64,000 nt of DNA, taken from the NCBI GenBank assembly GCA_964483535.1, contig CAZABZ010000001.1:8594-72593 (forward strand). Direction: 5' to 3'. Made by a program: the position numbers and the translations under genes. Below the pieces are notes generated by a model that made no database searches, was not told where the DNA came from, and saw only the letters and a program-made list of their open reading frames with translations. Below, in pieces: positions 1 through 20,500 of this stretch. Numbering within the stretch: the stretch's first letter is position 1; each line of letters opens with the position of its first letter. Source of the DNA: an uncultured Planctomycetales bacterium. Its GTDB lineage: Bacteria; Omnitrophota; Gorgyraeia; Zapsychrales; Fredricksoniimonadaceae.

Positions 1-1053
1 GTTGAGGAAAAAATCCGGGTAAGGATGATTTTAGGCAATATCAATATCCAGCGTCCCCGCCGGGATTTGCAATTTATTTTCATCAATAATCGCCCGGTTG
101 AAAGCAAAAATTTGAGTTTTAATCTCAATGATGTCTACAAACTCATCCTGCCTCCGGGCGTCTATGGGGCTTTTATCGTCGATATCGCTATGGATCCCGC
201 CAATGTGGATGTCAATATTCATCCCACCAAGCGTGAGGTGCGCATCAAAGATGAAGCCAAGATCATCCATTTATTGCGACACATGACGGAATACCAGCTG
301 ATGCATAAAGGCACTCCCAAGCGTATGTCTTTCGGGAGTGACAATGCTGTCGGGGGGCTGCCCGCCGATCAATTAATTTTTGCCCCAGGGCAATTGCAGG
401 CGAAATTTAATTCAAGTCATCCTGAGCGAATCGAAGGATCTCAGAATGCCCTTCCCCTGGATTTTCAACTTTTCGGCCGGGAGGATACACTGCGTTCTAA
501 ATTTGCCAGAGGAAGGTTTGTGGGATCTTTTCTTCAAAAATTCCTGCTTTTTGAAGCCGATGAATCGCTTTTGATCGTTGACCAGCATGCGGCGCAAGAA
601 CGCATCATGTTCGAAAAATTCAAGGACCAAATTGAAAACGCCAAGGTTGAAAGCCAGCCTTTGCTTAATCCTTTATTACTCAAATTGACCCCTCAGGAAA
701 GAATCGCGTGGGAAGAACTACAGGAAGAACTGACCGCCGCTGGTATTGAAACCACCCAATTTGATGAGGACACGATTGCCGTGCAGACCCAACCGTTGTT
801 ACTTAAAAACATCGAAGCCGTAGTACGAGCCCTGCTGGCTGGCGGGGAAGCTCTGAGAATGGACCATGACGCCTTAGCCCGCCGCGCCTGCAAAGCTTCC
901 ATTGTTGCCGGCGACAAACTCGATGGCTCCCAAGCTGATTACCAACGCAAACAATTACTTGAATGTAAAGATCCCTTCATTTGCCCACATGGCCGCCCAA
1001 CGCTCATTGAAGTCACCCAAGACTTTCTCAACCGCCAATTCCTGAGATCATAA
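1..1053 (+). CDS. mutL: DNA mismatch repair protein MutL, 3' partial (C-terminal about 350 aa; 5' end off-window)
   Basis: Frame is open from nt 1 (VEEKIRVRMILGN...). Carries the MutL transducer-domain motif DVNIHPTKREVRI and the C-terminal endonuclease motifs DQHAAQERIMFE (DQHA(X)2E(X)4E, nt 580-615), ACKASI and FICPHGRP (CPHGRP). Confidence 0.85.
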   Translation, partial: VEEKIRVRMILGNINIQRPRRDLQFIFINNRPVESKNLSFNLNDVYKLILPPGVYGAFIVDIAMDPANVDVNIHPTKREVRIKDEAKIIHLLRHMTEYQLMHKGTPKRMSFGSDNAVGGLPADQLIFAPGQLQAKFNSSHPERIEGSQNALPLDFQLFGREDTLRSKFARGRFVGSFLQKFLLFEADESLLIVDQHAAQERIMFEKFKDQIENAKVESQPLLNPLLLKLTPQERIAWEELQEELTAAGIETTQFDEDTIAVQTQPLLLKNIEAVVRALLAGGEALRMDHDALARRACKASIVAGDKLDGSQADYQRKQLLECKDPFICPHGRPTLIEVTQDFLNRQFLRS

Positions 1054-1067
1054 GAAATTCTTTATGC

Positions 1068-4000
1068 TCAATTCAATCCAAATACTTCGGCCAAATTCTG
1101 CACTGGCGTAATGCTGATGACAACTGGGCTAAGCCCGGGCACGCCCTGACGGCGTATCTGCGCGATGAGAGCAGGATCAACTCTTAAAGACACCCCGCCG
1201 TTTTCCTTGCGTGTCTGCCACACAGCATTGTCCGCGTTAAGATCAATGCCCCCGGGCGTTTCGGTGTCAGCAACACCGCTCAGCTGTTTCTTTTTATTGC
1301 TAAAGAAGGCATCTTTCAATGCCTGATTTGACAGGGTGTCCCAAGAAGAAATTTCCCCCACCATCGCTTTGTCTACCTCCAGTACTGCTGTTACGCCAGC
1401 CTTTGCATTAAAGTCTGTTATTGCTTTAGTGACAACGTTCATATTCTTTTTGAAATCAAACGCATACTTCTGGCTTATATCAAATCCTTCTTTAGGTTTA
1501 ATCTCAAAAAGAATTTTTATCTTATCTTCGGGCTTATCGTTTGAATTGCCAAAAGTATTTATAACAGTAGATTTTACGAGAAAGCTAAATGGCAGCCCCT
1601 CTTGCTTGATTTCTACCTGTAATTCACCATTCGTCTTGGCATCATTCCATTCAGGCCTGGTCATTGTTACACCAACCTGATAATTTGCTCCTATTTCTCT
1701 AGAGATAATGGCTTGCAATTGTGTTGTAACACTCTCGCTTGCTTTTTTCCAATTTTGCAAATATAAATATGAGCCATCAACAGGCAAGACGATTTCATTG
1801 TAGCGGGCCAGGCTCGAGGCAATCTCTTTCTTATTAAAGAGTGTGCGCAGAACTTCTTTCGTTACGGTGGAAAACTTACCTATTGGAAGATATCCATAAA
1901 AAAAGCTTTGAATAGCTTCCCTAGTTTCGGTTGCCGCTACAGGCTCCTCATAACCCTTAATATTAACAGCATCTAATTTCCCTTCTGTAATCAGTCTGTC
2001 AGTTAAAGCGTCCCCAAAGAACCCGGCTTCCCGATAAGTATGGGCAAACTTTATTCGGAGGCTTCTATGCTGTGTATCATTAAAATATGATTGAATAATA
2101 TATAATTTCCCAGGGACATCAAGTTCTGGAAGAATAAGGGGAAAGCCCTGATACTTTCCAAGCCCAATAAGTTTCTTCAATTTGGCTTCCATATCACCAA
2201 ACTTAGCAGCATTACGGATGGTATCTATAACGGCATGCCTATAGTCCATATCCAGCTGTGGGGCTTTTCTCTTTTTCGCTTCTTCGCGCATCTTATCTGC
2301 TTTTAAAGTGTGGTCATTGATGTCAACATAAAACTTTCTAACCCCCTCACCATTATTATGCTCAACTTCATGCTGTTGCATGCCGATCAACTTTTTATAG
2401 ATTTCAAAACTAAGTTCCGGGTAGAATAATAATGTCTTTCTAAGCAGGTTGTGCTTGTCGGCAGGAACGACACAGAAGTTCAATATTTTTATAGAGTCTT
2501 TGTTGGCATCAAAAGGCCTCCAAACATAACGATGATCACTCCCGGCAACATAGACTGCTGATTCCATCTGTGGCAACATGTCAAGAATTGTGGCGAGATT
2601 TTCCTCTCCGCCGCCGTCATTAAGTGAAAGCTTGTTTGTTATCCCTATAAGCCCCTTATTAAAATCAAAATCAATGGGCAATAAAGATACTAGATCCCCA
2701 AAAAGTTTTTTCAGTTCTGCCTCGCAGATGTTCCAACGCGCCTTGAATGTCTTCTGAACAAAGGGTTTTCTCGTGGGATCATTCTTGCTGACATTGACAA
2801 TAGCAACAGGCACCCCCATTAGAACAGAAGGCAACAGCATCATAACAAGATCGTGCGCGACCGTTGGCGGGCCAAATTTAGATGGAGCAAACTCAAAGGT
2901 GGTAACGCCGGAAGGGACAGTGATACTGCCTCTCTTACTATCAAAAGTTACTTGAGTTTTATAATTGACAATACCGCTCATTGCGTTACGCGCCATTAGA
3001 TATGCCGCAGACCGGATTATCTTTAGCGTTTCTTTAACAACTTTTATATGATTGCCATCTGGTGCTGGAATTTTAAGGTCTAAGCTCCGTATCTCGTTGT
3101 TTCGATTGGCAAGAAGAAACACTTCCTGTTGATATTGTTCCTCTCGTTCCTTCGGAGTAGTCGGCTTCTCATTTAAGAGAAGATTAGCAGAAAACTCGTT
3201 TATTAAAGTTTCTGGGTCAGCATCAGATGCGAATAATTCCTTTATTTTCCCTCGACTTTTAGATAAAGCATACTTGTACCAAAGTTCATTAGCCCTGTCT
3301 TGGGGCAAGAAGTCATCCTTCCCGTCTGCTATTAAAGCTAAAAACATACCGGCAAAAAAATAATTCAACCCATCATTGCTGTTTTGAATCTTCTTCAAAT
3401 ATTCTTTTGTGATATAAACCGTAGAAGTCGTTTTGCTAATAGCGAATCCTTTACTAAGTTTTTTGGCATGTTTTTTATCATTCACTACTTTAAAATGATT
3501 TGAATATGTTTCTTCCAAATTCCCAATCTTTAACATTTCGCTTTCTGACAGTTTTAAATTTCCCCCCGCGTTAGTCGGAAATAACAAAACGTCAGCATCC
3601 TTATCAACAATCTGCAATAAGGAATGAATTTGCCGATAAGGCGAATAGCCAAGGGTATCATCTATATTCTCAATATCAGTAGGATAATCCCCTCCAAATA
3701 CAATATCTGCATTCGTCTCTTCAAGCACATTGCGAATATTGGAAGGGACCTTGTCTTGTAGCAGCAACATAGCCTTATCAGACTGCATGGCCTTGTCGAA
3801 CCTATCAAGGTTCACCAGCACATCAAAGTCGTTCTTCCCTGCCATGGCCTGACGCGCCTGCAACTCTCCGACTTCGTCCATTTTCTGTGGAACCGGCTGC
3901 ATTCCTCCGGAGAAATACTTTCTGGGAAGAGGCTCATTGGTCAGGGCGTTAATTTCTTCCTTGACATAATTAAACGCTCCCTTCCTGTAAGCCCGCAAAT

Positions 4001-4955
4001 AGCGCTGATAAATTTCCTCCTTTGCCTTAGGCGAAGCCAAGTCGATGCCTGCTACCTTGTTCTTGTCGGCATACACCTCATTAAGAACGGCATCCTTCAA
4101 GGCTCGCTTGAACCACGTAGCCAAAATAACCGAGTTGTATGCCTGTCGCAAAAGAGCGAAATTCTTGCCTGTATTGACTTCTTTTTCAATCTCAGGAAGG
4201 ACTAGTTCCCGCAAAATTTGGTTAGTGATTTCAGAGGACGCCGGTTCCTGCTTGCCGGATAATTGTACTGAGCTTCTCAGTCCCGCAATTTCCGACTTCT
4301 GCTTTGCCAGATAATCCTCTTCCAGCATGACCTTCAAACGGCTATCTACAATATAAACGGACTGATTCTTCTCATAAATGGACACTTTATCTGCCACAAT
4401 CCACACTTTATTAAGAGTAGTGATTGGAATATCGGTTGTGCCGTACTTCTGTTGGGCCAACTTGTACACGCGGCTCCAGAAGTCCCTGCCCAGTTCCTTT
4501 TCAGGATAAAGGGCCGAAGCCGCGGTCTGCTTAAGGATATAATCTTCTCCCAAAAGATCCCGACCAAGCTCGGTAAGACTGAAACTATCCGGTAAAATCT
4601 TGTCCTTCTCATAAGGAGAAAGGTTGACCCACATATCTTTCTCAGGGACTGTCAGCGCGGCGAGGAAATACTTCACCATTTTCTCGCTCTCGGACTTTAA
4701 TTCCTGGCTGGAAAGATTGTTCTTGCCGGCATCCATAATGAAATCCAAAAGAAATGGATTTTCGGGATGAATTTTCAGTCCCTTCATCAACGAAGGCGTG
4801 AAAGGCTCACTTAAACCTACAATAGTCCCAGGAGCAGGAAGCTGATTGATGCTAAAAGCCCCACCTCCCGAAGAAACAGGCTGGGCATGGACATATTGGA
4901 GATTGCTGAAAATAAAGGTAAAGCAGACTAGTGAAGCAATTAAGCGTTTAAACAC
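1068..4955 (-). CDS. Large secreted protein of unknown function (1295 aa) with N-terminal signal peptide
   Basis: ORF of 3888 nt with a GTG start at 4953-4955. A Shine-Dalgarno-like AAGGGGG sits about 7 nt upstream on the minus strand. The N-terminus MFKRLIASLVCFTFIFSNLQYVHA/QPV looks like a Sec signal peptide with an AXA-like cleavage site. I recognise no catalytic motif. Its end converges on mutL with a 14-bp gap. Confidence 0.75.
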   Translation of the reverse strand: MFKRLIASLVCFTFIFSNLQYVHAQPVSSGGGAFSINQLPAPGTIVGLSEPFTPSLMKGLKIHPENPFLLDFIMDAGKNNLSSQELKSESEKMVKYFLAALTVPEKDMWVNLSPYEKDKILPDSFSLTELGRDLLGEDYILKQTAASALYPEKELGRDFWSRVYKLAQQKYGTTDIPITTLNKVWIVADKVSIYEKNQSVYIVDSRLKVMLEEDYLAKQKSEIAGLRSSVQLSGKQEPASSEITNQILRELVLPEIEKEVNTGKNFALLRQAYNSVILATWFKRALKDAVLNEVYADKNKVAGIDLASPKAKEEIYQRYLRAYRKGAFNYVKEEINALTNEPLPRKYFSGGMQPVPQKMDEVGELQARQAMAGKNDFDVLVNLDRFDKAMQSDKAMLLLQDKVPSNIRNVLEETNADIVFGGDYPTDIENIDDTLGYSPYRQIHSLLQIVDKDADVLLFPTNAGGNLKLSESEMLKIGNLEETYSNHFKVVNDKKHAKKLSKGFAISKTTSTVYITKEYLKKIQNSNDGLNYFFAGMFLALIADGKDDFLPQDRANELWYKYALSKSRGKIKELFASDADPETLINEFSANLLLNEKPTTPKEREEQYQQEVFLLANRNNEIRSLDLKIPAPDGNHIKVVKETLKIIRSAAYLMARNAMSGIVNYKTQVTFDSKRGSITVPSGVTTFEFAPSKFGPPTVAHDLVMMLLPSVLMGVPVAIVNVSKNDPTRKPFVQKTFKARWNICEAELKKLFGDLVSLLPIDFDFNKGLIGITNKLSLNDGGGEENLATILDMLPQMESAVYVAGSDHRYVWRPFDANKDSIKILNFCVVPADKHNLLRKTLLFYPELSFEIYKKLIGMQQHEVEHNNGEGVRKFYVDINDHTLKADKMREEAKKRKAPQLDMDYRHAVIDTIRNAAKFGDMEAKLKKLIGLGKYQGFPLILPELDVPGKLYIIQSYFNDTQHRSLRIKFAHTYREAGFFGDALTDRLITEGKLDAVNIKGYEEPVAATETREAIQSFFYGYLPIGKFSTVTKEVLRTLFNKKEIASSLARYNEIVLPVDGSYLYLQNWKKASESVTTQLQAIISREIGANYQVGVTMTRPEWNDAKTNGELQVEIKQEGLPFSFLVKSTVINTFGNSNDKPEDKIKILFEIKPKEGFDISQKYAFDFKKNMNVVTKAITDFNAKAGVTAVLEVDKAMVGEISSWDTLSNQALKDAFFSNKKKQLSGVADTETPGGIDLNADNAVWQTRKENGGVSLRVDPALIAQIRRQGVPGLSPVVISITPVQNLAEVFGLN

Positions 4956-5162
4956 TGTTTCCCCCTTTTTGGGTTGAAAATCTAAAAAAAATATAAAATA
5001 ACGAGTTTGAAAAATGCTTTCATTATAAGCATCTACTTAAAATATAACACATTTTTAATAAAAAGCAAGCTTAAAACTTGATAAATAAGCAATATTTATA
5101 TAATTAAAGAACAATTACCCTGAGAAATAAAATCCCCTATTTTTGCTACTATTTCTTACAAA
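4956..5162 (-). promoter_or_regulatory. AT-rich intergenic spacer, probable promoter/5' UTR of the 1295-aa secreted-protein gene
   Basis: 207-bp non-coding gap, very A/T-rich with runs of A, lying between the PilZ gene stop and the next gene start on the same strand. No -35/-10 pair could be assigned with confidence. Confidence 0.3.
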
Positions 5163-5519
5163 TTAACCGCCCCACCATTTATCCTTAAATTGCTCGGAAC
5201 AATGATCGGTGATGTATTGATAAATCTTGTCCTTGTCCGGGTCCAAAATTTTGTCAAAAGACATCCCATAAACATACCTCCCTTGGTCTTCCTCAACCCA
5301 GGGCAAGCTGACCTCAAGTTTAATGGGATCGAATTTGTCCTCAAGGGCCAACGACATATCCACGGACCGCTCTCGAGGTAACCGTTTGTCAAAAGACGCG
5401 CGCATCCCTTTTAAGTTCAGGTCCTCGATGATACACTGGCTGGATTCCTGCGTTCCGGGCAGCCAGACCTTTGCTTCCCTTTTGACCTGCCAGCGAGGCA
5501 GTTGTCTGCGTTCATCCAT
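5163..5519 (-). CDS. PilZ-domain protein (putative c-di-GMP receptor), 118 aa
   Basis: ATG at 5517-5519 is preceded by AAAGGAGAGAAAA, a strong RBS. The N-terminal ERRQLPR matches the PilZ RxxxR motif. DLNLKG about 24 residues later matches the (D/N)x(S/N)xxG motif. The start is only 30 bp downstream of the giant-gene stop. Confidence 0.6.
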   Translation of the reverse strand: MDERRQLPRWQVKREAKVWLPGTQESSQCIIEDLNLKGMRASFDKRLPRERSVDMSLALEDKFDPIKLEVSLPWVEEDQGRYVYGMSFDKILDPDKDKIYQYITDHCSEQFKDKWWGG

Positions 5520-5548
5520 GTTTTCTCTCCTTTCTAACGGGGTTGTTT

Positions 5549-8500
5549 TTAGACCTCTATTGTGTACGCATACGTTGTTGATGTATAACTAATATCATAT
5601 GTAAATACAGCCATCAGCGGCGGTATTAAATTGTCAAATCCTGACCAGAAACCGCGGCTGTTGTGGTCCATGCCCATTGAACTTTCCGCCCACAGCATAA
5701 ATTGCCTCTCCCTGACTGTTATGACAATTTTAATAACGGTAATATAAATGATACGTACGGCATGGAAGAACCATTTTACAAATATCCATTCAAAAAATAA
5801 CGGGAAGCCCCAGATCCCATATAAAAAGAGAAACGCGGGGCCCTCGTTAAAAATTGTGCCATTGCGAGGAGCATTTTCCAACGACGAAGCTCCGCTTCTT
5901 GCTTCCGCAAGAAAACAACGGGACCACGCCCCAAAAAACAGGGCTCCCAAAGACGCTGGTCGAAACGCTTCCAAGGGCCGGACTACTCCAATGATTTTTA
6001 GCCGATGCCGAATAGTTCTGGGCGTATTCATTGATGCTGGCGCCGGCAAAATATTCATCCTGCCGGTTACCGGCGCTGACGCCCCACTTGGATTAATAGG
6101 CCGCGTTAATATAAAGCAAAGGTCGGACAACATCAGCGGGAAGAACACGATTGCAATTATGATCAAGGCCATCATTATTCTTTTTCGTATTCTTTCCCAT
6201 TTCTTACTGGAATCTTTGGCAACAGTCGTGTCCGGTTTGAATGTCAGCACAGCCCCGGGGTGTTCCAAATTATATTGACGATGCAAGGCGATGTTCTCGC
6301 GAAGAGAGCGTGCCGATTTAATCGCACGAATTCCTGCCCGACGAGTCAGGGAGGCGGGCGAATCATCCCCTGGTAAATGCCCATGCCAGCGCATAAGCAC
6401 CCCTACAGGAAGTATGTAAAAGAATGGGGCCTCAAACCGCGGCGCTACTTCCAGTTCAATCCATCGGTGAATACTTTCATGGTCTGGTTCCCATTTAAAG
6501 AAACTCACTATTCTCCTCAGCCAGTACAAGAAATAGCCAATACGATAGGTGATCCCCAGAGTCAACGGCATTTTTGTAGGGACGGGGGATAGAACCACCG
6601 CCGCCATCATGGCCTTCTTCACAGCTTTGGCAGCCTCCGGCCAAATAATCTGCACGGAAAAGACCCCTTCGATCCCCTGTAAAGGCCTGGCAATATCCTC
6701 TTTGGTCAATAACTTCATACTCCTGGCCGTAAAATGAAGCTCCCCTTGCTCCGGGTTACTTTTCATTTCTATGCCTTCAAGCAGATTGGCTTCCTCTAAT
6801 TTATCCTGTACTTTTTGGGCAATGTCTATCATATTCGCGCCTTGCACGATAATCGAAATTTCCGCCTGCGACTGCATAAAGTTACGCAATTGATCCGGTT
6901 TAATCAAATCCATGGCCAAAGCCGCGCACAATTCATTAAAACGGAAATTGCCTTCATTTTGAGCCAACCGGCGTTCTTCATTAAATCTGGCTATAAAAAT
7001 AAACGTCTCCTCAGAGAATGGCCCCCATCCCAATTCTTTGATGATCCCCATCAGTAAATCTTTGCCTCGTTCGACCGCGGCGTTATATTCATTGCGATTT
7101 TGCAGATATGCCAGCATCAGACGCGCCCGCAATGACTGTATTTTATCCCGCAAATTCTGCCGAACATTAATATCTCCCCTCACATCAATCGATAGGCCTT
7201 GTGTGACTTGCTCCAAAACCATACCAGCCCGTAAAGGGGCATAGGGGAGTAATCTCCCCTTACGGCCGCGCTTAAATTGTTCCAACTGCCCCAACACATA
7301 CGGATGATTACCCTCCCCTAAAACAAAACCCCGGTATTGGTCATCAAGCTGGATTTTACGATGCATGGCCGCGTCAAAGGGAATGGCCTTATCCGGCAAG
7401 GTGATAACAGCAAGCGACTTCCCACCTTTGGGGCCCGTAAGTAATAAGAAAATATACATGCGTTCATTGGCCCGTTCAAAAAGAAGGCGCAAATTCGTGT
7501 CAATGTCCACCCCCAGTTGCAATTCATCCCCGGGAAGCGCTTGTCCCTTTATGCCATCATTTTTCAATACATCATTTGCCTTAAAAGCCCAATGCGCGCC
7601 GGAAATAACTGGCGCCACTAAAATATGATCGGGTTGAAAACCAAAACGGTATTTCAAATAATCGGCCTTAGCCATGACTTGTATTTCCCATTTGCGACCG
7701 TCATCAATTAAATTAATATGGGAAGCGCTATAGCCATGTCTTGTATCATTTTTAAACTTTGTTTCTTTAACTCGATCACCCCATGCATTACGGACACCTA
7801 CTTCCGCGAACAGAGCATCCTCTTTATTTTGGGTAATAACCATAACTCTAAGCACATCCCCCAATTGATCAAATTTTTCATATTTGTTAGTTTTAGATTT
7901 TATTTTATCGTATATCGAAGCCAGACCTTTAAGATCCACATGAATTTGAATACCTGGGATCCCTTGTAAGATGCTCTTCATTTTTTTACGCATCTCTTTA
8001 GCAATATCTATAAACCGCTCTTCCACTATGCCTACGGCATACTCAATGTCCTTGTGCTCTGCGATGGCTTGATTAACATTCTTTGCAATGTCAAGTATTT
8101 CGGCTATTTTTCTGCCAATATCCTTAAATTCCTCCGGATGTTCCACCCTAAAAATACCGTCGCGCAAATCTTCCACCATCCGGGCGGAATTTAACCTCCC
8201 TGCCAAAGCCATGTATAAATGCCTGACCTTCCTTATAGAAAATTTCTGTTGTTGAGGGTCTCCATAACGGGTCTGCCATAATGTCAAAGCAAAAAGGACA
8301 TACAACACCCTGGCATCGCCACCAGTCATTTGAATGATAGCATTCATGTAATTAAGAAATGTTGAATCCGTCCTAAGTCTTTTGAATGTCTCATTCCAAT
8401 ACGGCCAGGCCATGATGGTTGCGGCGCGGTCTATCACCGACCCCACATTAGGCCCTAAATTAAGACTTTGCCTAATGTCCGCCTGCTTGCTTTTGGGGGA

Positions 8501-11500
8501 CGTCATGATCCTCAACTGGGCCAATGCCGCCTCTACTGTAACCGTATCATTCGTCCACTGGGAAATCTGACGACGGACAAAGGACTGTCCCTTTTCCCGT
8601 TTCTCACTGAAATCCTTGGTTCCTGTCGTAGAGGATTTGAATGTCAGCACAGCCCCGGGGGTTTCTAAATTATACTGACGATGCAAGGCAATGTTCTCGC
8701 GAAGAGAACGCGCCGATTTAATCATGCGAATTCCTGCCCGACGAGTCAGGGCGATGAGTGAATAATCCCCCGGTAGATGCCTATGCCAGCGCATAATCCG
8801 CTCCAAAGGAAGCATATAAAATAACGGCGCCTCGAGCCGCGGCGCTACTTCCACTTCAATCCAACGGTGAATACTTTCATAACCTGGTTCCCATTTAAAG
8901 AAACTCCTTATTCTCCCAACCCAATACAACAAATAGCCAATAAAATAGGTGATCCCAAAAGTCAATGGCATTTTGGGAGAGACGAGCAGTAGTGGGGCCA
9001 CCACCGCCTGTTGGAGGCCAAGCAATCCCACCTTGCTGCGGCCAGGATCTTTACTCTCCAGAGGCTCAGAGAGAAGACAGTCTTTAAAGAGCTTCTTTTG
9101 TTCGTCGGTAAATTTAAAATCTCCGGCAATCGCATCCATAAGCCCGGATAGGTCTCCTCGGACAAGATGAGTACGCTCGGGGAAGGTAGCTTGAACCCAG
9201 CCCAGAAAAGCCTTAGTCCCGGCTTTCGTTTTCATCAACTTCCAGCCCATGAGGTCTTTCAGGGTGTATTTCTCTAAAATATCCTGATAAAATGTCGCGG
9301 CTTTAAAAACGGGATTAGGAATACGTTCACCCGGATGTGTACCATTAATCTTAAGTGGAATAAATACTGTCTGGTAAAGATGTGCCCAGAAGATGTATCG
9401 CTCTTTGTTATCAGACAAACTTCTCGAAAGGAAGATTCTCTTTAACACAGCGACACGATCAACTGCAACAGGTGCGTTAAGTTCGGCATAAATTAGGACC
9501 TTAACATAATCTTTCCATACCCTAAAAAGAAAGAAGGAATCATCAATGATATTTTTGGCCTGATTGAGAAAGGAGCCAGCTCCTTTCCCTGCTTCAAGGG
9601 ACTCGCGGGCTTGCGACAAAATACCAAAAAACGATTTTAAGTCAGGCTCGCCTTTGATATCCTCCATCTTGCGTATGCCAAATATACATCCGAGCGCACT
9701 ATCAACATGCCTGCCTCCCAAGCAAAGTTCAGTATCATTAAGAAGCCCCGCTAACTTGATATTTCTCCTTTTAATCTCTCCCCAAAGTTGTGTCAGTTTC
9801 TTATCTACAAGCTTGCCGGCAATAACAGCTGCGTTTCGACTACGCATGTCGGTGTACCATGCGGCCGTCCGCAATAGTCGACTGGCAGTAAACCAACCCT
9901 GTTTACCGCTCTGAATCGCCTCTGAGGCCTCATTTATAAGTCTCCAGGCAATACGTTTCTCTTTAACCTTTAGTAACTTTGGATCCCCCAGATAATCAAG
10001 AAGTTCCTCCAGAGATGCCTTCAATCCGGATGTATTTTCACCGTTTTGCTCTGAAAGTATCTTCTTAAGCTCTGAACTTACTTCCATGACCTTGCGGCGG
10101 TCCTTAAGCTCACTTTCGATGGCATCGCAAATACTACGAAAACGTTCCCACTTAACTCGATTAGCAAGGCGTCTGTTCCTTATGGTAATCTTGAGAGCGC
10201 TTTGTGGAAATTTCTCAGCAGTCTTTTTAATGGCTTGCGTGTGGGCTTGGGCCCTCGTCAATGGATTCTGGCGGTCCAGAAACAGACGGTTTTCGATAAG
10301 TCCGTGATAAGCATCTTCGCGGACCAAATTTTTACTGAGTTTATAAACAAGTTCGGAGGAATAATAAATTTCCAGCGTGGAATTTTTACCGCGGGTAAGC
10401 TTGTCCCAAATAAATCCTCTTGGCGGAGCGCGCGAAATCTGCTGGTTCAAAATGAACAGCCTCACCGGAACATCGACAATCTCTTCAAATATCTTCTGGT
10501 CAACATTAACTTCGTCAAACGCCTTCTGAATGATAAGTTTCTTGATGTCCTTCACGTTTTGCGTCGAAACATTCCCTGAACATCCCGGCCCGCCCTTTAA
10601 AGTATCCCTTGTATTGATTTTCGACCCAATCCTGATATCCACGAATAACTCATTGGAATCCTCTGAGGCCAGAATAGTGGCCGCTTGAACTAAATATGAG
10701 ATAAGGTCCTTCTCCAATGCCAAAACCGGGACCGCAGCCGGAACCAGATGGAGAAGTTGCCGGTTGAGGTGAAGAATATAATCCCTGGTTATTTCGTCAC
10801 GGCGTACAATAAGCCAGGATTCAAGCATCTCATCATAAGATGGCGGCACGCGGATTTCCATGGAGGCCATTGTGTCAAGAATTTTACTTATATGCTCATC
10901 CAACCCATACGATGCTTTTGCTTTTTTAAACGCTTTTAATATATATTGTTTTTCTTTTTGCGTCACAGGCTTATTGACTTCCGTCCAGGTCATGGTCTGT
11001 TTTTGCCTCAACTTTTCTTCCTGCGCCGGATGGGACGACTTGTCGGATACGGCCCTCGCCTTTGCCGGTTTAAAAATTATGGACCTTTGATATACTTCCT
11101 GAAGTCCAACAACGATTTGCATAAAACCAATCAGCTCCAAAATATACTTAAAGACTGCATGAGAAGCGGGAATATAAAACAGCGTGGAGAACAAAAACAC
11201 TGTCCCAACAAAAAAGCCCAATAACCCGTTATAGAAAAGTGTTATCGCGTTTACGCCATCCATGAGACCCGAATAAAGAATGTCCTTCAATGAAGCATGA
11301 GCTTTACGTCCCTGAAGCTTTGCCAACAAGAACATCATGGCCATATTAAACGCTGTGATCCCGGATATAGATAAAATAATCCGGACGACTTTATTTATCC
11401 GCACGTATTTCGGCAGGCCGGCCTGCGCCGCTGAAAAATGCATCGTCAATCCATAACGCGGAAAGACTTCCAAAATCTTCGACAACGCCGGGTGTTGCTC

Positions 11501-14500
11501 CACCGCCCTGACAAACTCCCTTTCCGGCCCCAACCTTCTGCCATGAAATCTCTTTACGCTGTAATAGGTGTGCCACGCCAGATTGGCCGCAAACATAGCT
11601 TCCAGCGACTGTATCCTATGCTCGGCATCATTGGCAGGAGCGTTACGTTTCTTCAAGTTCAAAGCGTTGAGCGCCACCTCAGACAGGTCCAGGTTAATGT
11701 CATTCTTTTTTATGAATGGATCGGTACACGCATCTTTAAAATCAGCGACATCAGGATAAAGGACATGCGCCTTGGCCTTAACCTTGGCGCCAATCTTCGA
11801 GTTTGACAACGCCTCATTGAGCCATTCCGCAGACAATTTAGTCGCATCCAGCGTGGCATCCACATAATCCGCCGGCGTATAGCTGTCAAAATCCTGGTTA
11901 CGCATGAAAAGGTCGTGGTCACGTGTATCGTCCCCCTGGAAAATACAGCTATATCCGTCCTTTATTTCCAACGTCCCCCGCAATGAAAACGGAATATTAT
12001 TTTTTACTTTATCAAATAACGAAAAGATATCAAAAATCACGGAGTCGCTGGAAACGGGATTAATCATAAAACCGGCACTCTTGTCTTCTTTCCATGCCTT
12101 AGACTTCACATAAGCCTCGATCTTCTTCCCGATACCCGCCGCCCCCCTTGTAAATTCGACAATTTCACTCTTCTTGTCAGGGTTAAACGAAATGTAATTA
12201 AAGCGTTTCTGCAAAATATCCTCTGTCCTTGCTTTGGGGTAAGGACTGTCCCACAACAGCAACATCTGGTAAATAACTTCCCGGGTGTACTTTTTGTGCT
12301 TGCGTAGAAGGTCCAATATCTCCCTCAATGTTTCCGGTATATCATTGGTTTTTTCAAAATAGTCATACCAGCGACAGATCATGGCGACTAACGCCTTATA
12401 TTCTACGGGGTCCCCTCCGCTGGTAATATCAATGCTCCCATCACGAGCACATTGCCATGGCCTTCCCTTGTTTTGCGGGTATTTCTTATTAAAAACATCC
12501 TCTGGCAAATCATGGATCACTTGCTCGTGTTTGATATTGACAACACGGAAAAGTTTCCTGAATTCTGCGACCAGGCCGTCAAAATACGGACTGGTAATAT
12601 TTGCCCCCCTCAGATAGGCCTGCAAAAATTCCCCATCTTTATTGATGTCGTTATAATGTGTTTCCTTGATGATCGCGATCGTCATGATAATATCCAAAAT
12701 CTCCCGGCCTGTAGGTTTGGTCCCCCTATCTTCTAAAAATTTCAAACGTTCCAATTTTTGTGAAATACCTACTTCGGTCCCGACTTGGCGGCAGCCCCTG
12801 TTACGAGTAAGAATATGGAAAAAACGTTGCGCGTACAGCCGCGCCAGGCAAGGATCCAGAAACTCGAGGAGTTCCTGCGGAACAAGGCTGCGATCAAACG
12901 CCTTTTCTACAATAAAATAAGTGTCTTCAATCAACGCGCCGGCGGCCGCCAATTTTTTATGCGCGATCGACCTTGGATTATCTAATAAATATCGAAGCGC
13001 CAGACGATAAAAAATGACCGCCCTCATCGATGAGAAATATTGTTCGGCATTACCTTCTAAATAACGCTTCAAATTGATCTCCAGCACATTCGCGAAACGG
13101 TACCCGTAATGAACGGCCCAGTTATCATCATAAACAAATGTCGCTTTAAACGAAAACAGACTGTCTGATCGGTTCTGTGGCAACGCCGGGACCACCTGGT
13201 ACCTCAAACAAATATTCACATTCCGTCCAACCCATAAAATCCGGATCATCGTGTTATAAAATTCTTCTTTCAGGGCTTGATCTTCCACGGATTTTTCGTG
13301 CCATTTCTCCCACAGGGCATCAATGACTTGCTCCATCCCTTTCCCCTGTATCCACTGTATCCACCCTATTGGAAGATCCTCCTCTTTTCGCGGCGGAAAT
13401 AAACATACACTGACCGCTTTAGAGAACTCTTCCTTTGATTTAAAAAGATAACCAAAGCTATCTTCCTGGGGCGTAAAATATCTTTCAAAACAACGCTTGA
13501 CGCGGTCTTCTAATTTCTTCCTCTCGCTTTTATTTATTTGCCCGACCAAATACCAGGCCGGGATCTTTTCAGGCTCTTTTTTCGGCGATATAACGCAAGC
13601 TTTGTCTGCGGCGGCTTTATCTTTCACTGCCGAAGATTTTCCATTTGCCAACGAGCCAAACTTCTTTTGCCAGCTGCGGACAAAAATGGCAGCTATCAAG
13701 CTGACGCCAACTAAAACCATGGTCCACTTGAGCATCCCCCCAAGCCACATAGACGCGATGCTCACCGCATTGATCGCCAACAATGCCGGCATTGCACACA
13801 AACCTTTCGCATCATTCGTGAAGTCCACTAACTGACGAAAGATGTTGACACTGTTCGGCGCGTCTTTCCCTTCAATGGGACAAGAGCGGTCATGAAGAAC
13901 GTCCATCTGAATGCGGGCCCCTGCCTCGATCGTCTCATCCTCTTTTTGCATCTCGCTTAACTGTGCCAGCCTGTCAGACCCTTCAAACTCGGCTAACAAA
14001 CCAGCCAAAGGCGCATTCTTATTTTCAATGAAACCTCTGACGTGTCTGTCCAAAAGACGCGACATGGCTGAAGGATATCTTCCCTGCCAGTACGCGCGTG
14101 TAAAAAGACCTTTGAGTTGCGATGGGTTAAACGCCTGGCCATTATGAATAAATACCGTGCGTATCCCCCGATCAAAGCCATAAAGTTCCACCCCAAAATC
14201 ACCATGCACAAACTTTTCGGTCTCTATCGAAGCACGCTTCTGTAAAGCCTTAAACATTCTGCTAACCCAGAACACGATAACCTCATGAAGCATCTCCCGT
14301 GTTTCCTTCTGTTGTGGGCAAATGCTTTCTAACGCTTCCGGTAAAGAACGGCTGCTGAAATCGTCCACCCATTTCTCAAACTGTTCTTCAAGGCTCCCCC
14401 CGAAAATCTTTTCCGAAAAGCGTTCTTTCAAGAACCAATCCTCTCCACGCAAGTCAATAAAAGCATGTATGAAATCCTTCGTCCGCTCATCATATGCCGC

Positions 14501-17500
14501 ATAACTCGGCACCAAAGATAAACCATAAAAAATCATCTGGATATCTGATTCGACTGGATCTTTGAACCCACGCGTACGGTCCTCAAAACGTACAGCCGTC
14601 CTGTCCGCGTCATCATGAAGACGGTAACGAAGATCGGAGAAATCCAAGAATGCTTCCGCATTGGTGTATTTGCCCTCAAAAATGTAAATAACATCTTTTT
14701 CAAAAACAATCGGAATATCTTGTCTTTCCGTCTGTCCACGGATATAAGCATTTTTGATCACATACTCCTGACGTTTGGAACCGGAGGCGCGAAATGCGTG
14801 TAAGTTCCTTAAAAGATCTAGGGCCAAAGTAAAATCAAAAAAGCCCTCTTCTCCCAGATACTCCTGACCTGGCTTAAGATTGCCGACCATGTCACCTAAA
14901 AGCGCTCTTTCCTGTGGGGTCAAAACCAACGGTCCGTTGGCCGGGTCATGGGCTACAACTTTCTGCACAGCTTCCCGCCACTGGCGGTCTCTAAGGAACC
15001 AGTCCAGCTCAATGATCTTCACACGTGCGGTATCCGCTAGAAACTTCTCAATGAGTTTGGCAATGATCGTCTTCCCTGAACCTGAACCGCCGTCAATGGT
15101 GACAATAGGAGCATTACCTTCAACCCCGCGGGCAAGACGTTCACGGATATGTCTTACGATCGAAATGACAAACGGTGTCATACATGACTGAAGATAGTCA
15201 AGGGAAGTAGCAAATATCGGGTTGCCTGTCTTGGGATCTATCGGAGGATGATTATAATAACCGTGAGCTAAAGCAAACTCATGAGCAGGCAAAGGAATAA
15301 CCGCCGGGTCCTGTCCGTAACGATAACGTGTCGAAGAAATCGACAAATCGATCTGTGGATGTTTCAACAACAGTACCGGCAAATCCATTTGCCCGCCATA
15401 AAGGGCCTTGCCCTGTTGATTATACAACTCCATTCTTTCCTGCGTTATGCCCAGGCCAAACTTGCCGCGTTGTATCCAGCCAATACTAATACGATGCCGC
15501 GGATCTATCCTGTCTTCGTTTTTCTTTAAAATACTGTAAAACAGCTCGTAATAGTGAACGACCCGCTTTTCGTTCTCGATCCCAAGCAAATACACGAAAT
15601 GGACCCGTCGGCCACGGTTATAATCCATCAATTGCAGCATCTCTTCAAATCCTTCTCGCTCATTATCCGGCTCACTGCCAAAATCAGTATAACGTACCAG
15701 AGGCCCCATCCCGTCGATGGACAATTTGGTCATCATATGTCGATGTTCGGTGGAAACCTTCTCTGAGCGATAAACCTTCTTGTAACTGATACGACCCTGC
15801 ACCCTGATGGCCACAAAATCAAGTCCGAGTAAAGCAATAGCAAATAACGACGGTATCAAATGCCCATGGTTGGGAGGATTGCCGGCAATTGGCATAAGCC
15901 CTATCTTGATTTCCTGATCAGGATCGGCATCCTCCAGCGCCACCGGCCCATCATCCTCGATAGAATATCTTAATAATTTCGCGCGCTTAAACGGATTTGT
16001 GACCTTGCGACGAACATTTTCTTCAATCATCCCGAACACAGTCTCATAAGCTCTGAGGATCCTACTATTGAGGAACTTGTTGCTGCGATCACGGATCTGC
16101 GGGTCCGCTTTAATTTGCTGGTCAACAACATTGGCCAGCACTCCTTGCACGGCCTTAATCGCTGTAACATGGCGGGTTGCGGGATCCTGACCACGTTTGC
16201 CTTCAAGCCACCGGCGCAAAATAACTTCACGGGCAGAATTCTGCTCTTCAGTGAGATTAAATTCTTTACCGTGTGTGGCTAAGGCGCGAATTTCATGTCC
16301 AAGACTTAACGCTGTTTCAAGGCGGGTGCTATAAGCGGGATAATAGGTGCTGGCCCAAAGGTATTCCAGGCCATCTTCGATAGTAGACGTGGCCAAGAAC
16401 CCTTTAAAAGGCGCGCCTTTTAACAGGCCTGCCCTTCCCATCCAACGCAGTTTGGCCGCAGCCTGGCTGTCGCCAGTTTCTTCAAGGCCGCGGGCCATCA
16501 GTTCCCACATCTCCTCGGGGATGTCCGTCACCTTGCTCCGATCTAACTGTGTGAACTCATCCGCCACGATCTTCTCATAAGGAATGTCCCTCATTTCTAA
16601 AGGCATAATGGCCTCGGGCAGACGGCGGGTGGGGTCTTTTTTGCTTGAGGATGGCAAATTGTCTTTGGTCTGACATTGTGTCAGAAAATCATGAAGGAAA
16701 TGTTTCTTAAAACTCGCAACATACGCCAACTTTCTCTCTGCATCTGTAAGTTTATTCGCTTTGGCATATCTCTTGGATTCTTTCACAACCAATTGATAAA
16801 GCTCTTGCAATCCTTGAATGGTATATTCCGATTTTATCCTTCCATCAGCATTTAAATATTTAGCTAAGAATTTCTTCCTTTCAGTAGGGATATGATAACC
16901 ATAGCTTGCAGTTGTCATAATTCCGTCTTCTTCCAACACATCACCGTCAGAAACAAACAATGCGTTCTTGTCCCCATCAATAACAACTTTTGATCCTTCC
17001 TTAAGTTTCAGGCCGTCTTTCAAAACAATTCCCTGCCCCGCTCCTGTTAATTGCCACTTAGCAACAGCAAGATTAATTAAAGAAGGAATGCCATCCAGAC
17101 GAGTCAAGTCAGCTTCATGAGAAGAACTATTGCCATAAGTCGTAATCAGGCCTGCTTTGGGATAATCAAACATCACCTCTAAGACCTGCTCTTGATTGCC
17201 TTCGTGCGCAAGAAAAATAACCGGCTTGTTTTCACTCATCAGCTTACGGGCTTTATTAATATTCCAAACAAGATATCCTTGCATAGCCCCGGAGGTTGAA
17301 GCTTCGCCTTGAGCAAGCCTCTTGGCCTTAACGCCTTTTTTAACTTTATATATTCTTCTCACTCCTAATTTATCTTGTAGTTTTTCAATCCGTGGAATGG
17401 CGCGGGCCTCTGAAATCTTACCTTGAGCTAATTGCTCTTTGATATAGGCGATTTCCGCTTGTGGAGCAAAATTTATGTTTCGAGTTTGCAAGAAATAAAT

Positions 17501-20500
17501 CTTCCCGCCATTCACAACAAACTCAACTTCCTGTGGGCCGACTGCTTCCTCTAACTTTTTGCGTACCGCAAGAAGTTGGCGATAAATACGCGGTGCTGTC
17601 TGCGCCAATTTATTAATATCCTGCCCCTTCCGTCCGCCAGTCATCAATTCCTCACCTTTGGCATTTTCAAGATACTGTCCAAATAAAACTTTTTCATTCG
17701 TATTGGGATTACGGGTTGAAAAAACTCCCACGGCATAAAAAGGCCGTGAAGGACCTTTCCCGCTTATCCACAACTGAATAATAATTGGCAGGTCATACGC
17801 CTCCCCCAAACCTTCTCTGCGACGGTAATCTTTAGCCTTCTCTGAATACCATGCTTGCGCAACTTCACGAATAGCGACTAAAAGATCATTTGTGTTGATT
17901 ATGGTTTTAAGAACGCCGGGCATTGATCTCTTGGGATTACTGCGAACCGAATAAGAAACTGATAAATCATCGGACACTCCCGCTTTATGTAATTCTTTAA
18001 AAATCAAAGCCATAAAATCTTCTGCCTTTATTTGGGAAGACTCTATGATAATTTTCACCAAATCTTCAGAAAGAACTATGCCCGATGGATATGGAAGCCC
18101 CAGCTGATCAAGGATTAAAAATCCCGCTTCCTTATTACCCATCTGAGGCCTATAACATCCTTTGCCTAACAGCCTTACACCAAGTTTCACTCTATTGGCA
18201 GCCAATTGTTCTGCTGAAAATATATGCGATTTTTTAGGAAATGAAATGGCCCGCACTAATCTATCTCTCGCTGCTAAATAAAGAGCAATGAAATCCTTAT
18301 ACTCGGCAGGGACCGAAAGACGCAAGCTGTAATCACCATACCCCCAGTGCTTTAATGCGCTCCTCTCGGGATGGGATTCTGATTTCTCCTCCATATAGGC
18401 CTGCGAAAGGTGAAAATATTGCTTTAAAACATCCAGCATGGGGTCTTGATCAATCCGTCTTTTAATGTTAAGCAACACGCGAGACTCTTCAAAGGTATCG
18501 AATTTATATATCGTATATTTTAAAAGGAAAGTTACAAACTTTGAATTCTTCTGAGAAGGGCCTAAGTAACGAGGCTCAGCATTGTCGCCTCTAAGAATCC
18601 TATCGACTCTATTTTCGAATCTCTGATATAAATCGTACAATTTTTCTGAATCAAGTCTTGGATTAATTTTTTGTGCCGCACGAAAAACAGAAGATAGCCG
18701 CTTCTCCGCCATTACTTTTTCTGGAGTCAATAATTGAGTATTGGCTGTGCCCTCAGCCGAGGTTGAATCCTTGATTATGTCCTGATAACGCTTGACCTGC
18801 GCAATAAAATCTTCAATAGTTCTTGCATTAAACCCGACAGCGGCAACTATTCCTTCCGGCATAGCCAGCACACCAGCCACCTTCGTTTCAAAAATCCCAG
18901 CCGCGCCGATAATGATAAGTGACTGATTCTCCCTGCGAATATCCATAAGTGAACTATTCTCTTCTGCCAACTTTGCCTGGACATCAGACCACTTCTTAAG
19001 AACCACTCCATCAACACCGAGTTTGACCGCTGCGTTGATGGTTTCAATGAACGACGGCTGGACGTCCGTTCCAATCTCAGCAAAGATAATTAGGGCCGGA
19101 TACTCAACACGAATCTTAACTATCTCATCGGCCGTTGGGACAAAGTCGATCATAGTGATAAAGCTAGCTCCTGCCATGGCCCCTTCGTAGATCTGGGCAA
19201 CGTTGGTCGCAAAATAACCGATAACAGCTGATGAGTTCTTCGTGCGAACGGCCTTTAGTACATCGATTATATCAACCGTTGGAATAAAATTATTGGCAAT
19301 CAAAATCTCTGCAAACTGTACTAATGTAGCTGCCTCCAGCCCCGCATAGCCCTTGCCGCCGGTGACGGTGTGCAGGCCGACTTCAATACGGGAAGCCATG
19401 ATAACAGCCTTGATATCATCTTTGGCTATAGCCCCCTCCTCTGGGACAACCTCATTCCCAACGGCCATCTGCATCAGCTTTCTCATCTGCACCCCAACAT
19501 CCCCAGAATCTCTGTGATCGAAATTCTTAATAGTTGCAACAGCCGCTGCATTATCAGACAACACCGGCGCAGAGATCGTGCGAGCATCGTTGACGATCCT
19601 CATAAATTCCTGATCCCCGTTGTCCTTCATGGCGAGGAAAAGAGGAGGAATATAAATAATGCTCGCGAGATTTCGTCCTTCGGGATTCCAATCGCCGGAG
19701 ACATTGCCTTCCCTTAACCCTGCGATAATTGGTTCACACCCTTTAACATGCTGTTGCGCATCCGCGCTGCTGCCTAAAAGAAGGACATCTTTCAGCCCGC
19801 GCTTTAACGCAATAGCGGCTAATTCCTTCAGCGCAACTTCCCCAGCTAAAGTAATAAATACAACTTTGCCATCTACGTCCTTGCCTATTATAGAGAAGGA
19901 CGCCTTTTTGGTTTGGATTTCCCAAGCTACGGCATTAGGTTCAAGGGCCGGGAATTTATACTCGATGGTGTCTGATACATCTTCACCCTTATTGTTAATG
20001 ACCACAACCCCGCCAACAGCAAAACGGATCTTTGAAATATCGCTGTCCCTGACTGGTTTGCTGTCCTCAATATCTACTTTTATAATGCCTGCGGTTGGGC
20101 CATCAATAACAAAGAAATAATAGGTATTAGTCAGAGAAACTACTTTATCAAGCCCGATACCGGGAGCTGTCTTAATAATCAATTTGCCGTTTTGAATAAA
20201 CATGGTCTGAGCTTCCCAGAAATTACCCTGATGACCATTGATAGCAAAAATGGCACCGGTTTTCTTGGCGAAGGCCTTTACAGACAAACCCGGGAACCGT
20301 CTAAATATTTTATTGCGCTCTTTGGCGATTTTAATCGTCTGGGCAAATCGGGCGAAGTCGTATCTTATGCCTTTCTTGCTGGTATATAATTTAACTACAT
20401 TCCCAGAAGGAATAACAACTTCACGGGCCCAAATAGCGCCTTCTTTAGACTGGGTGGTAAAGGTTGTAACATTTAATCCTTCTACGGCTTTAGTGCCAAT

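Follow-up and report, generated by a model that had tools for sequence, protein, structure and literature searches.

A small PilZ-domain gene directly downstream of a giant Omnitrophota gene, conserved as a pair and possibly linking the giant protein to c-di-GMP

Analysis of a 64,000-nt stretch of Omnitrophota DNA (here called the window) revealed that a 118-codon, ATG-initiated open reading frame on the minus strand (5163..5519) encodes a single-domain PilZ protein, and that this gene directly follows, on the same strand, the gene of a giant multi-TM protein of 21,986 aa. The arrangement was found to be strongly conserved among relatives. We hold it to be somewhat probable that the 118-aa product is a cytoplasmic, stand-alone PilZ-domain protein of an Omnitrophota-specific orthologous family, which would form a two-gene unit with an "Archaeovorin-like" giant membrane-protein gene and act as a ligand-dependent, c-di-GMP-responsive switch of the giant. 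The initial annotation of this locus had proposed c-di-GMP-dependent control of the giant membrane protein, or a partnership with it; as far as sequence analysis goes this interpretation is supported, with both a significant PilZ match and a conserved synteny with giant genes found.

The pairing itself is already known, since West-Roberts et al. (2023; 10.1101/2023.11.21.568195) report pilZ homologs directly after most giant genes of Omnitrophota. In that preprint, conserved pilZ genes and carbohydrate transporters are depicted downstream of giant genes (Fig. 5C), T2SS/T4P-like clusters are described upstream of them, and giant genes of up to >85,000 aa are reported; a GGDEF domain occurs in many, not all, of the giants and was proposed as the partner of PilZ and a local source of c-di-GMP. 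A 2026 preprint (10.64898/2026.06.07.730766), in which giant genes reach 147,155 aa, analysed the giant-gene flanks of 176 complete Omnitrophota genomes and leaves PilZ unmentioned, and our literature search retrieved no further paper linking PilZ with Omnitrophota giants. The window locus, with its small pilZ gene on the same strand as the giant and separated from its 3' end by a 29-nt gap, is thus an instance of the published pattern. It shares with the loci of the 2023 preprint the phylum, the small pilZ gene(s) immediately 3' of a giant multi-TM gene and the c-di-GMP hypothesis, and distant relatives of its PilZ gene also precede solute-binding-protein ABC transporters. It differs from them in that its giant is smaller than the 30,000-aa focus set of that study, has no GGDEF domain in its 19,484 visible aa and is not accompanied by a downstream ABC transporter.

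The earlier description consists of one sentence and a figure panel, without motif analysis, selection analysis or the giant's C-terminal module; what is new here is the motif variant, the purifying selection, the contrast with the rapid divergence of the giant, the C-terminal module and the absence of GGDEF from the visible giant. Few proteins in biology are as poorly understood as the products of Omnitrophota giant genes. No new kind of system is added by our results, and the conserved small PilZ protein encoded at the giant's 3' end offers experiments the easiest access to giant-gene control, its 118 aa being a practical entry into giant-gene biology. If the proposed function is true, c-di-GMP would switch a presumed predatory or attachment apparatus.

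The PilZ protein and its family

The assignment of the small ORF to the PilZ family, initially made from a short signature in its translation, was borne out by a profile search, in which Pfam PilZ (PF07238) gave a significant full-length match (37.6 bits, with the gathering score at 22.5 bits; E 3e-9), with residues 3-104 of the protein covering positions 1-101 of the 102-position profile. NCBIfam returned a sub-threshold PilZ-type paralog domain only. Since a profile of the family had no match at E<=1 among PDB sequences, fold comparison was needed, and 39 family members served to build an AlphaFold2 model for it. The model (mean pLDDT 83) comprises six strands (residues 10-19, 26-34, 38-43, 52-58, 66-78 and 81-91) and then two helices, with residues 1-4 disordered. 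In a Foldseek comparison with the PDB, all matches at E<=0.001 were PilZ domains that bind c-di-GMP, among them MotI/DgrA, the P. aeruginosa PilZ domain 4xrn, MapZ, Alg44, YcgR, VCA0042 and PlzA; MrkH and BcsA followed with slightly weaker E-values. The fold agrees with the profile match, and the model shows the product to be a true PilZ beta-barrel, of a family that is divergent in sequence. RRxxxR lies in a loop at the N-terminus, D33-x-N35-x-x-G38 and W74 are placed on the beta-barrel, and the chain closes with two helices that end in KWW. Two plus-strand ORFs (5190..5381 and 5323..5592) are antisense to the conserved PilZ frame and were not treated as genes.

A search of 5.8 billion proteins retrieved 81 homologous clusters (51-90% identity, 106-147 aa), all of which carry PF07238. 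Their sources, where named, were Candidatus Omnitrophica/Omnitrophota, some of the MAGs being labelled "uncultured Planctomycetales". The PilZ gene is under purifying selection, with pairwise dN/dS values of 0.11-0.26 against the seven orthologues with unsaturated synonymous sites; these values, together with the preservation of the N-terminus MDERRQLPRW in the 81 homologous clusters, indicate that the ORF is a real gene and not a chance frame. A profile search of 1.84 billion representatives further yielded 847 matches at E<=0.001, 153 of them at E<=1e-10. The best 150 of these 847 matches were all small, either single PilZ proteins of ~117-130 aa or tandem di-PilZ proteins of ~215-265 aa, and the longest among them (412 aa) consists of four PilZ repeats; none of the 150 is a fusion of the PilZ family to a giant protein, of the Rosetta-stone kind.

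PilZ copy number varies in the relatives. Two PilZ genes (146 and 118 aa; 9440..10357) adjoin each other in locus L017 and three stand in a row in L040 (1561..2727), and in many representatives two domains are fused into a tandem di-PilZ protein of ~230 aa, as in L038 (958..1665).

The protein reads MDERRQLPRW...IIEDLNLKGM..., and both halves of the RxxxR...DxNxxG signature on which the first assignment was based can be read in it, as RRQLPR at residues 4-9 and D33-L-N35-L-K-G38. The RxxxR motif of the N-terminal loop (R5-Q-L-P-R9) is preceded by R4. The second motif differs from the canonical [D/N]xSxxG by an Asn at the Ser position; in the 39-member alignment this position is Asn in the close relatives of the window protein and His in most other family members. 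Fourteen positions are invariant in the 39 members (M1, E3, R5, P8, R9, E32, K37, G38, M39, S42, W74, Y84, G85 and C107) and at least 90% conservation was found for a further eight (D2, Q6, L7, W10, C29, D33, W115 and W116), the N-terminal MDERRQLPRW being near-invariant across the family.

The closest parallel among characterized proteins is MapZ (PA4608) of Pseudomonas aeruginosa, likewise a stand-alone single domain (125 aa, as compared to 118 aa) with RRxxxR at the very N-terminus and a beta-barrel followed by a C-terminal helix (Foldseek TM-score 0.62-0.64). MapZ acts by binding its partner CheR1 when loaded with c-di-GMP. In a profile-sequence alignment (hhalign; MapZ sequence verified against PDB 5xly_B), R4/R5/R9 of the window protein correspond to R8/R9/R13 of MapZ, D33/N35/G38 to D35/S37/G40 and W74 to W77, so that the R, D, G and W positions align. 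The two proteins are, however, only ~20% identical, Ser37 of MapZ corresponds to Asn35 of the window protein and to His in most family members, and the genomic context and presumed partner differ, with no chemotaxis genes near the window PilZ gene. Judged by its motifs, the PilZ protein appears fairly likely to bind c-di-GMP, and would probably do so as a dimer because the residue before its RxxxR is Arg; the residue at this position governs monomer versus dimer binding (10.1101/2020.02.11.943704).

Further parallels come from PilZ domains that serve membrane machines. The C-terminal PilZ domain of BcsA and the PilZ domain of Alg44, both among the structural matches, are associated with large membrane export or synthesis machines, and these machines are switched on by c-di-GMP. 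BcsA and Alg44 carry the PilZ domain as a fusion with the machine, whereas the window PilZ is a separate polypeptide, and the window giant does not belong to the glycosyltransferases of the BcsA type. MotI/DgrA and YcgR ("brake/clutch" proteins), which were the top structural matches, respond to c-di-GMP by binding to a membrane machine, in their case the flagellar stator or rotor. Unlike the single-domain window protein they have two domains (YcgR_N/PilZN and PilZ; 210-245 aa), and no flagellar genes occur in the window locus.

The giant gene and its junction with the PilZ gene

The giant ORF (5549..64000, minus strand) comprises 19,484 codons in the window and is open at its 5' end. Its frame is open from 5552 to base 64000, and a start at the ATG at 63991 was rejected as internal, the frame continuing to the window edge (63989..64000). 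The gene is called at 21,986 aa on the 115-kb JGI contig 3300041809|Ga0455670_0001368, which the window matches at 100% identity over the shared 14.8 kb, extending 717 nt past the contig end. The visible part therefore amounts to 89% of the protein, with the 2,502 N-terminal aa falling outside the window; for this N-terminal part and the upstream genes, metagenome contigs gave no match, either with a protein query or with an exact 40-mer. Strain variants of the window, at 95.6-97.2% identity, occur in other samples.

About ten clusters of hydrophobic helices are distributed between residues ~7,080 and ~19,430 of the giant, which is thus a multi-TM protein, as "Archaeovorin" is described to be; its cysteine content is only 0.2%. 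Recognisable domains are sparse. On the minus strand, Pfam identified a PPDK_N ATP-grasp domain (17693..18013; 49.9 bits), a radical-SAM-like region without CxxxCxxC (22085..22660; 25.2 against 29.5 bits, below threshold), a ResIII/DEAD-like ATPase with Walker A GTGEGKS and DEAH (55277..55675; 20.1 bits, below threshold) and TPR repeats (57125..58219; up to 34.7 bits). A RelA/SpoT-like domain (PF04607; 7667..7930, minus strand) lies ~700 aa before the C-terminus and scores 26.4 bits against a cut-off of 27 bits (E 8.9e-6). Its motifs are partly degenerate, with ExQ and Y.S.H kept and D..G.R lost, and several synthetase motifs are missing. The low-confidence structural model of this domain (pLDDT 49.7, core 66-89) matches Rel, RelA, SAS and CapRel structures only, and a single homologue was found in the 5.8-billion-protein database; in L014 (GCA_041643075.1), a related locus, a separate 555-aa ORF directly before PilZ encodes the domain.

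The 19,484 aa within the window contain no GGDEF, EAL or HD-GYP domain (GGDEF by Pfam at E<=0.001) and no such motif, GG[DE]EF included; the local c-di-GMP source proposed in the 2023 preprint is therefore absent from the visible 89% of the giant. GG[DE]EF-like strings do occur in the giant flanks of relatives. These were rejected as GGDEF domains, as they appear to be chance occurrences or parts of other folds, for example LLGGDEFCRTQRGNNNA in L024, which we take to resemble a glycogen-debranching/GH13 motif.

The last ~85 aa of the giant form a C-terminal module (5552..5806, minus strand), in which the last TM helix is followed by a juxtamembrane stretch of basic character (K..IK.R.RQ) and by a tail of ~45 aa (...LxT.F..DI.YT.TTYQY). 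An HMM of this module matched in 14 distinct loci, solely where the ORF before PilZ ends, and found no match in eight PilZ-bearing loci (L014, L016, L021, L022, L028, L032, L034 and L036). The positive-inside rule predicts a cytoplasmic location of the tail, where the signal-less PilZ protein would be as well, and we infer from this that the tail is a candidate docking site for it. The giant of L014 does not have the ~440-aa C-terminal TM region seen in the window.

The giant's stop codon (TAA, 5549..5551) and the ATG of the PilZ gene are separated by a spacer of 29 nt (5520..5548, minus strand), so that the earlier description of a PilZ gene 30 bp after the giant gene was right about the strand and one base too long in its distance. 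The spacer holds the near-consensus ribosome binding site that had also been noted, with the core AAGGAG at 5527..5532, 7 nt before the ATG, and the sequence tAGAAAGGAG before the ATG recurs across related loci, in which the gap between giant and PilZ varies from -8 to +47 nt. Where the two genes overlap (-8), the overlap has the ATGGATGA form, which is typical of translational coupling. In the vicinity of the junction (5520..5548) we found no sigma-70-like promoter and no minus-strand terminator consensus. Co-transcription of the PilZ gene with the giant gene is plausible from these sequence features, since the gap is short or replaced by the 8-nt overlap across species, the ribosome binding site is kept and promoter and terminator signals are missing from the junction; the original argument, that 30 bp leave no room for a promoter or terminator, overlooks a possible promoter within the 3' end of the giant gene.

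On its other side the PilZ gene is followed by an AT-rich spacer of 207 nt (4956..5162, minus strand), which separates it from the next same-strand gene. This spacer shows no significant RNA structure (z = -0.34) and no consensus terminator or promoter, and Rfam detected no c-di-GMP riboswitch and no other RNA family over positions 1..7000 of the window. The spacer is likely to mark where the giant-PilZ transcription unit ends at its 3' side, to hold the promoter region for the next gene, or to do both.

Conservation of the gene pair and its surroundings

An identical PilZ protein is encoded on 11 contigs, each time with a long ORF before it and a 1295-aa gene after it. A huge ORF on the same strand, of 13,670-42,417 aa, directly precedes PilZ in almost all of the contexts that we examined. 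The upstream gene encodes 42,417 aa next to a 54% identical PilZ orthologue (gap 27 nt), and 21,745 aa (gap 29 nt) and 13,670 aa (with a second PilZ gene in between) next to two 56% orthologues. The 78% orthologue of L014 follows a 29,339-aa gene and then the 555-aa ORF mentioned above, whose counterpart in the window is an internal part of the giant. Next to a 60% orthologue the upstream gene was called at 1,511 aa with its frame open across the whole 10-kb flank (gap 18 nt), and next to a 51% orthologue the upstream ORF overlaps the PilZ start by 8 nt. Among GTDB species-representative genomes, the upstream same-strand ORF was open to the limit of the fetched DNA in 13 of 17 loci, spanning 848-3,335 codons within that DNA and separated from PilZ by a gap of -8 to +47 nt; the exceptions had upstream ORFs of 1,205, 843 and 2,880 codons, those of L026, L032 and L037 measuring only 843-2,880 aa. 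With five called giants and 13 of the 17 GTDB loci, synteny of this gene with giant ORFs is strongly conserved, as a partnership of the two would lead one to expect.

Part of this conservation reflects common descent. Genes for MutL and MutS lie convergent to the pair, downstream, in nearly all loci, and MutL is 70-86% identical; the clade is therefore fairly narrow, and its gene order is partly inherited. Two observations point to more than inheritance, namely that the interval between PilZ and mutL varies while the giant-PilZ junction stays tight, and that distant PilZ relatives also follow a long ORF. The latter (profile E 1e-19 to 1e-28) are located after the long ORF and before an ABC transporter that depends on a solute-binding protein (SBP); an SBP_bac_1 gene follows PilZ in L038, L039 and L040, and BPD_transp_1 permease genes come next in L040. 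Apart from the C-terminal module the giants show no recognisable conservation; they are far more divergent than their neighbours, PilZ identity across loci being 41-90% and that of MutL 70-86%: a tblastn search with the last 3,300 aa of the window's giant matched the closest locus, L014, only, plus a weak C-terminal match in L019.

The gene that follows PilZ in the window is the 1295-aa ORF (1068..4955, minus strand), which has a signal-peptide-like N-terminus and no Pfam or NCBIfam match. In about 10 related loci the first ~350 aa of its product (45-52% identity) and the final ~60 aa are kept, with a variable middle part, and the ORF is missing from several loci, in which PilZ still adjoins the giant. 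Beyond it lies the C-terminal part of MutL (DNA_mis_repair and MutL_C; 25..1053, plus strand), convergent to the giant-PilZ unit. In relatives the PilZ-mutL interval is filled by a homologue of the 1295-aa protein, a 2,918-aa protein, a PIN/RHH toxin-antitoxin pair or nothing. The 2,918-aa gene, with hexokinase and PGM/PMM domains, takes the position of the 1295-aa gene in L012, and the toxin-antitoxin pair (FitA-like) is found between PilZ and mutL in L014 (10473..11110; GCA_041643075.1).

Candidate ligands, targets and modes of action

In the explanation that we favour, the giant gene and the PilZ gene would be co-transcribed and sometimes translationally coupled, and the PilZ protein would for this reason appear only after the ~66-kb message has been completed. 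It would bind c-di-GMP, probably as an intercalated dimer owing to its RR-xxx-R, and the liganded protein would then bind a cytoplasmic part of the giant, or the giant's export or assembly machinery. In this way c-di-GMP may control the giant protein, switching the deployment or activity of this giant surface protein; the action of MapZ on CheR1 and that of the BcsA PilZ domain on cellulose synthase would be the models for such a switch. We give about an even chance to the giant or its assembly machinery being the direct target of PilZ. Several points speak against the explanation as a whole: the replacement of Ser by Asn or His, the divergence of the family, the lack of a GGDEF domain in the visible part of the giant, the lack of a fusion among the profile matches considered, the partly inherited synteny and the three short upstream ORFs.

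Some of these points would be accounted for if the protein were a degenerate adaptor like the PilZ proteins PA2960/XAC1133, making protein-protein contacts only and sensing no c-di-GMP, for example by linking another factor with the giant or with a type II/IV-like secretion ATPase. The Ser is replaced throughout the family, the family is too divergent for a sequence match to solved PilZ structures, T2SS/T4P-like clusters are found upstream of giants (West-Roberts et al., 10.1101/2023.11.21.568195), and non-canonical proteins make up >17% of single-domain PilZ proteins (10.1101/2020.02.11.943704). The known non-binders, however, have lost RxxxR and DxSxxG altogether (10.1101/2020.02.11.943704). 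In the present family R5, R9 and the Trp equivalent to MapZ W77 are invariant and D33 and G38 are conserved, and the near-invariance of MDERRQLPRW is as expected of a ligand-binding loop. Asn and His, moreover, are still able to donate hydrogen bonds, and we regard a degenerate adaptor as unlikely. A further alternative, rather unlikely in our view, is that PilZ does bind c-di-GMP and merely shares the giant's transcript, its target being the downstream secreted protein, the sugar ABC transporter of other Omnitrophota or the pilus/secretion ATPases. Such a target would fit the distant relatives, in which one to three PilZ genes or a tandem di-PilZ gene stand between the long ORF and an SBP_bac_1/BPD_transp operon (as the 2023 preprint notes as well), the lack of a fusion to giants among the best 150 of the 847 profile matches, and the retention of PilZ in loci whose giant does not have the conserved C-terminal module. 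Yet the window's clade has no downstream ABC transporter, in several loci PilZ is directly followed by the convergent mutL, and the 207-nt AT-rich spacer intervenes between PilZ and the next gene in the window; the giant gene is the only constant neighbour, and the tight gap or overlap occurs with the giant gene only.

A different ligand was considered as well. The D-x-N/H-x-x-G pocket might recognise another nucleotide, possibly one made by the RelA/SpoT-like pyrophosphokinase domain of the giant, whose 26.4-bit match at 7667..7930 is joined by a model that resembles only Rel, SAS and CapRel structures, which stands directly before PilZ as an ORF of its own in L014, and which is found in a giant whose visible part contains no GGDEF. 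This we consider highly improbable: the domain scores below the Pfam threshold, has lost several synthetase motifs, is modelled at a pLDDT of 49.7 and has one detectable homologue, while PilZ accompanies many giants without an RSH-like domain. We also know of no PilZ domain that binds (p)ppGpp or related nucleotides. The preferred explanation, with c-di-GMP as ligand and the giant as target, can be taken further, to a PilZ protein that is an obligate, detachable subunit of the giant. Made upon completion of the ~66-kb message, it would dock on the giant's C-terminal tail as in a "split BcsA" and, through c-di-GMP bound in its D-x-N/H-x-x-G pocket (or, less probably, the nucleotide of the giant's RelA/SpoT-like domain), license the export or activity of a predator's giant surface protein. 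In this extended form we judge the proposal quite unlikely.

Outside the canonical PilZ signature, the family also keeps C29 (codon 5433..5435, minus strand; at least 90% conserved), the invariant C107 (codon 5199..5201, minus strand) and the C-terminal KWW, and these residues may represent a partner-binding or redox-sensitive feature.
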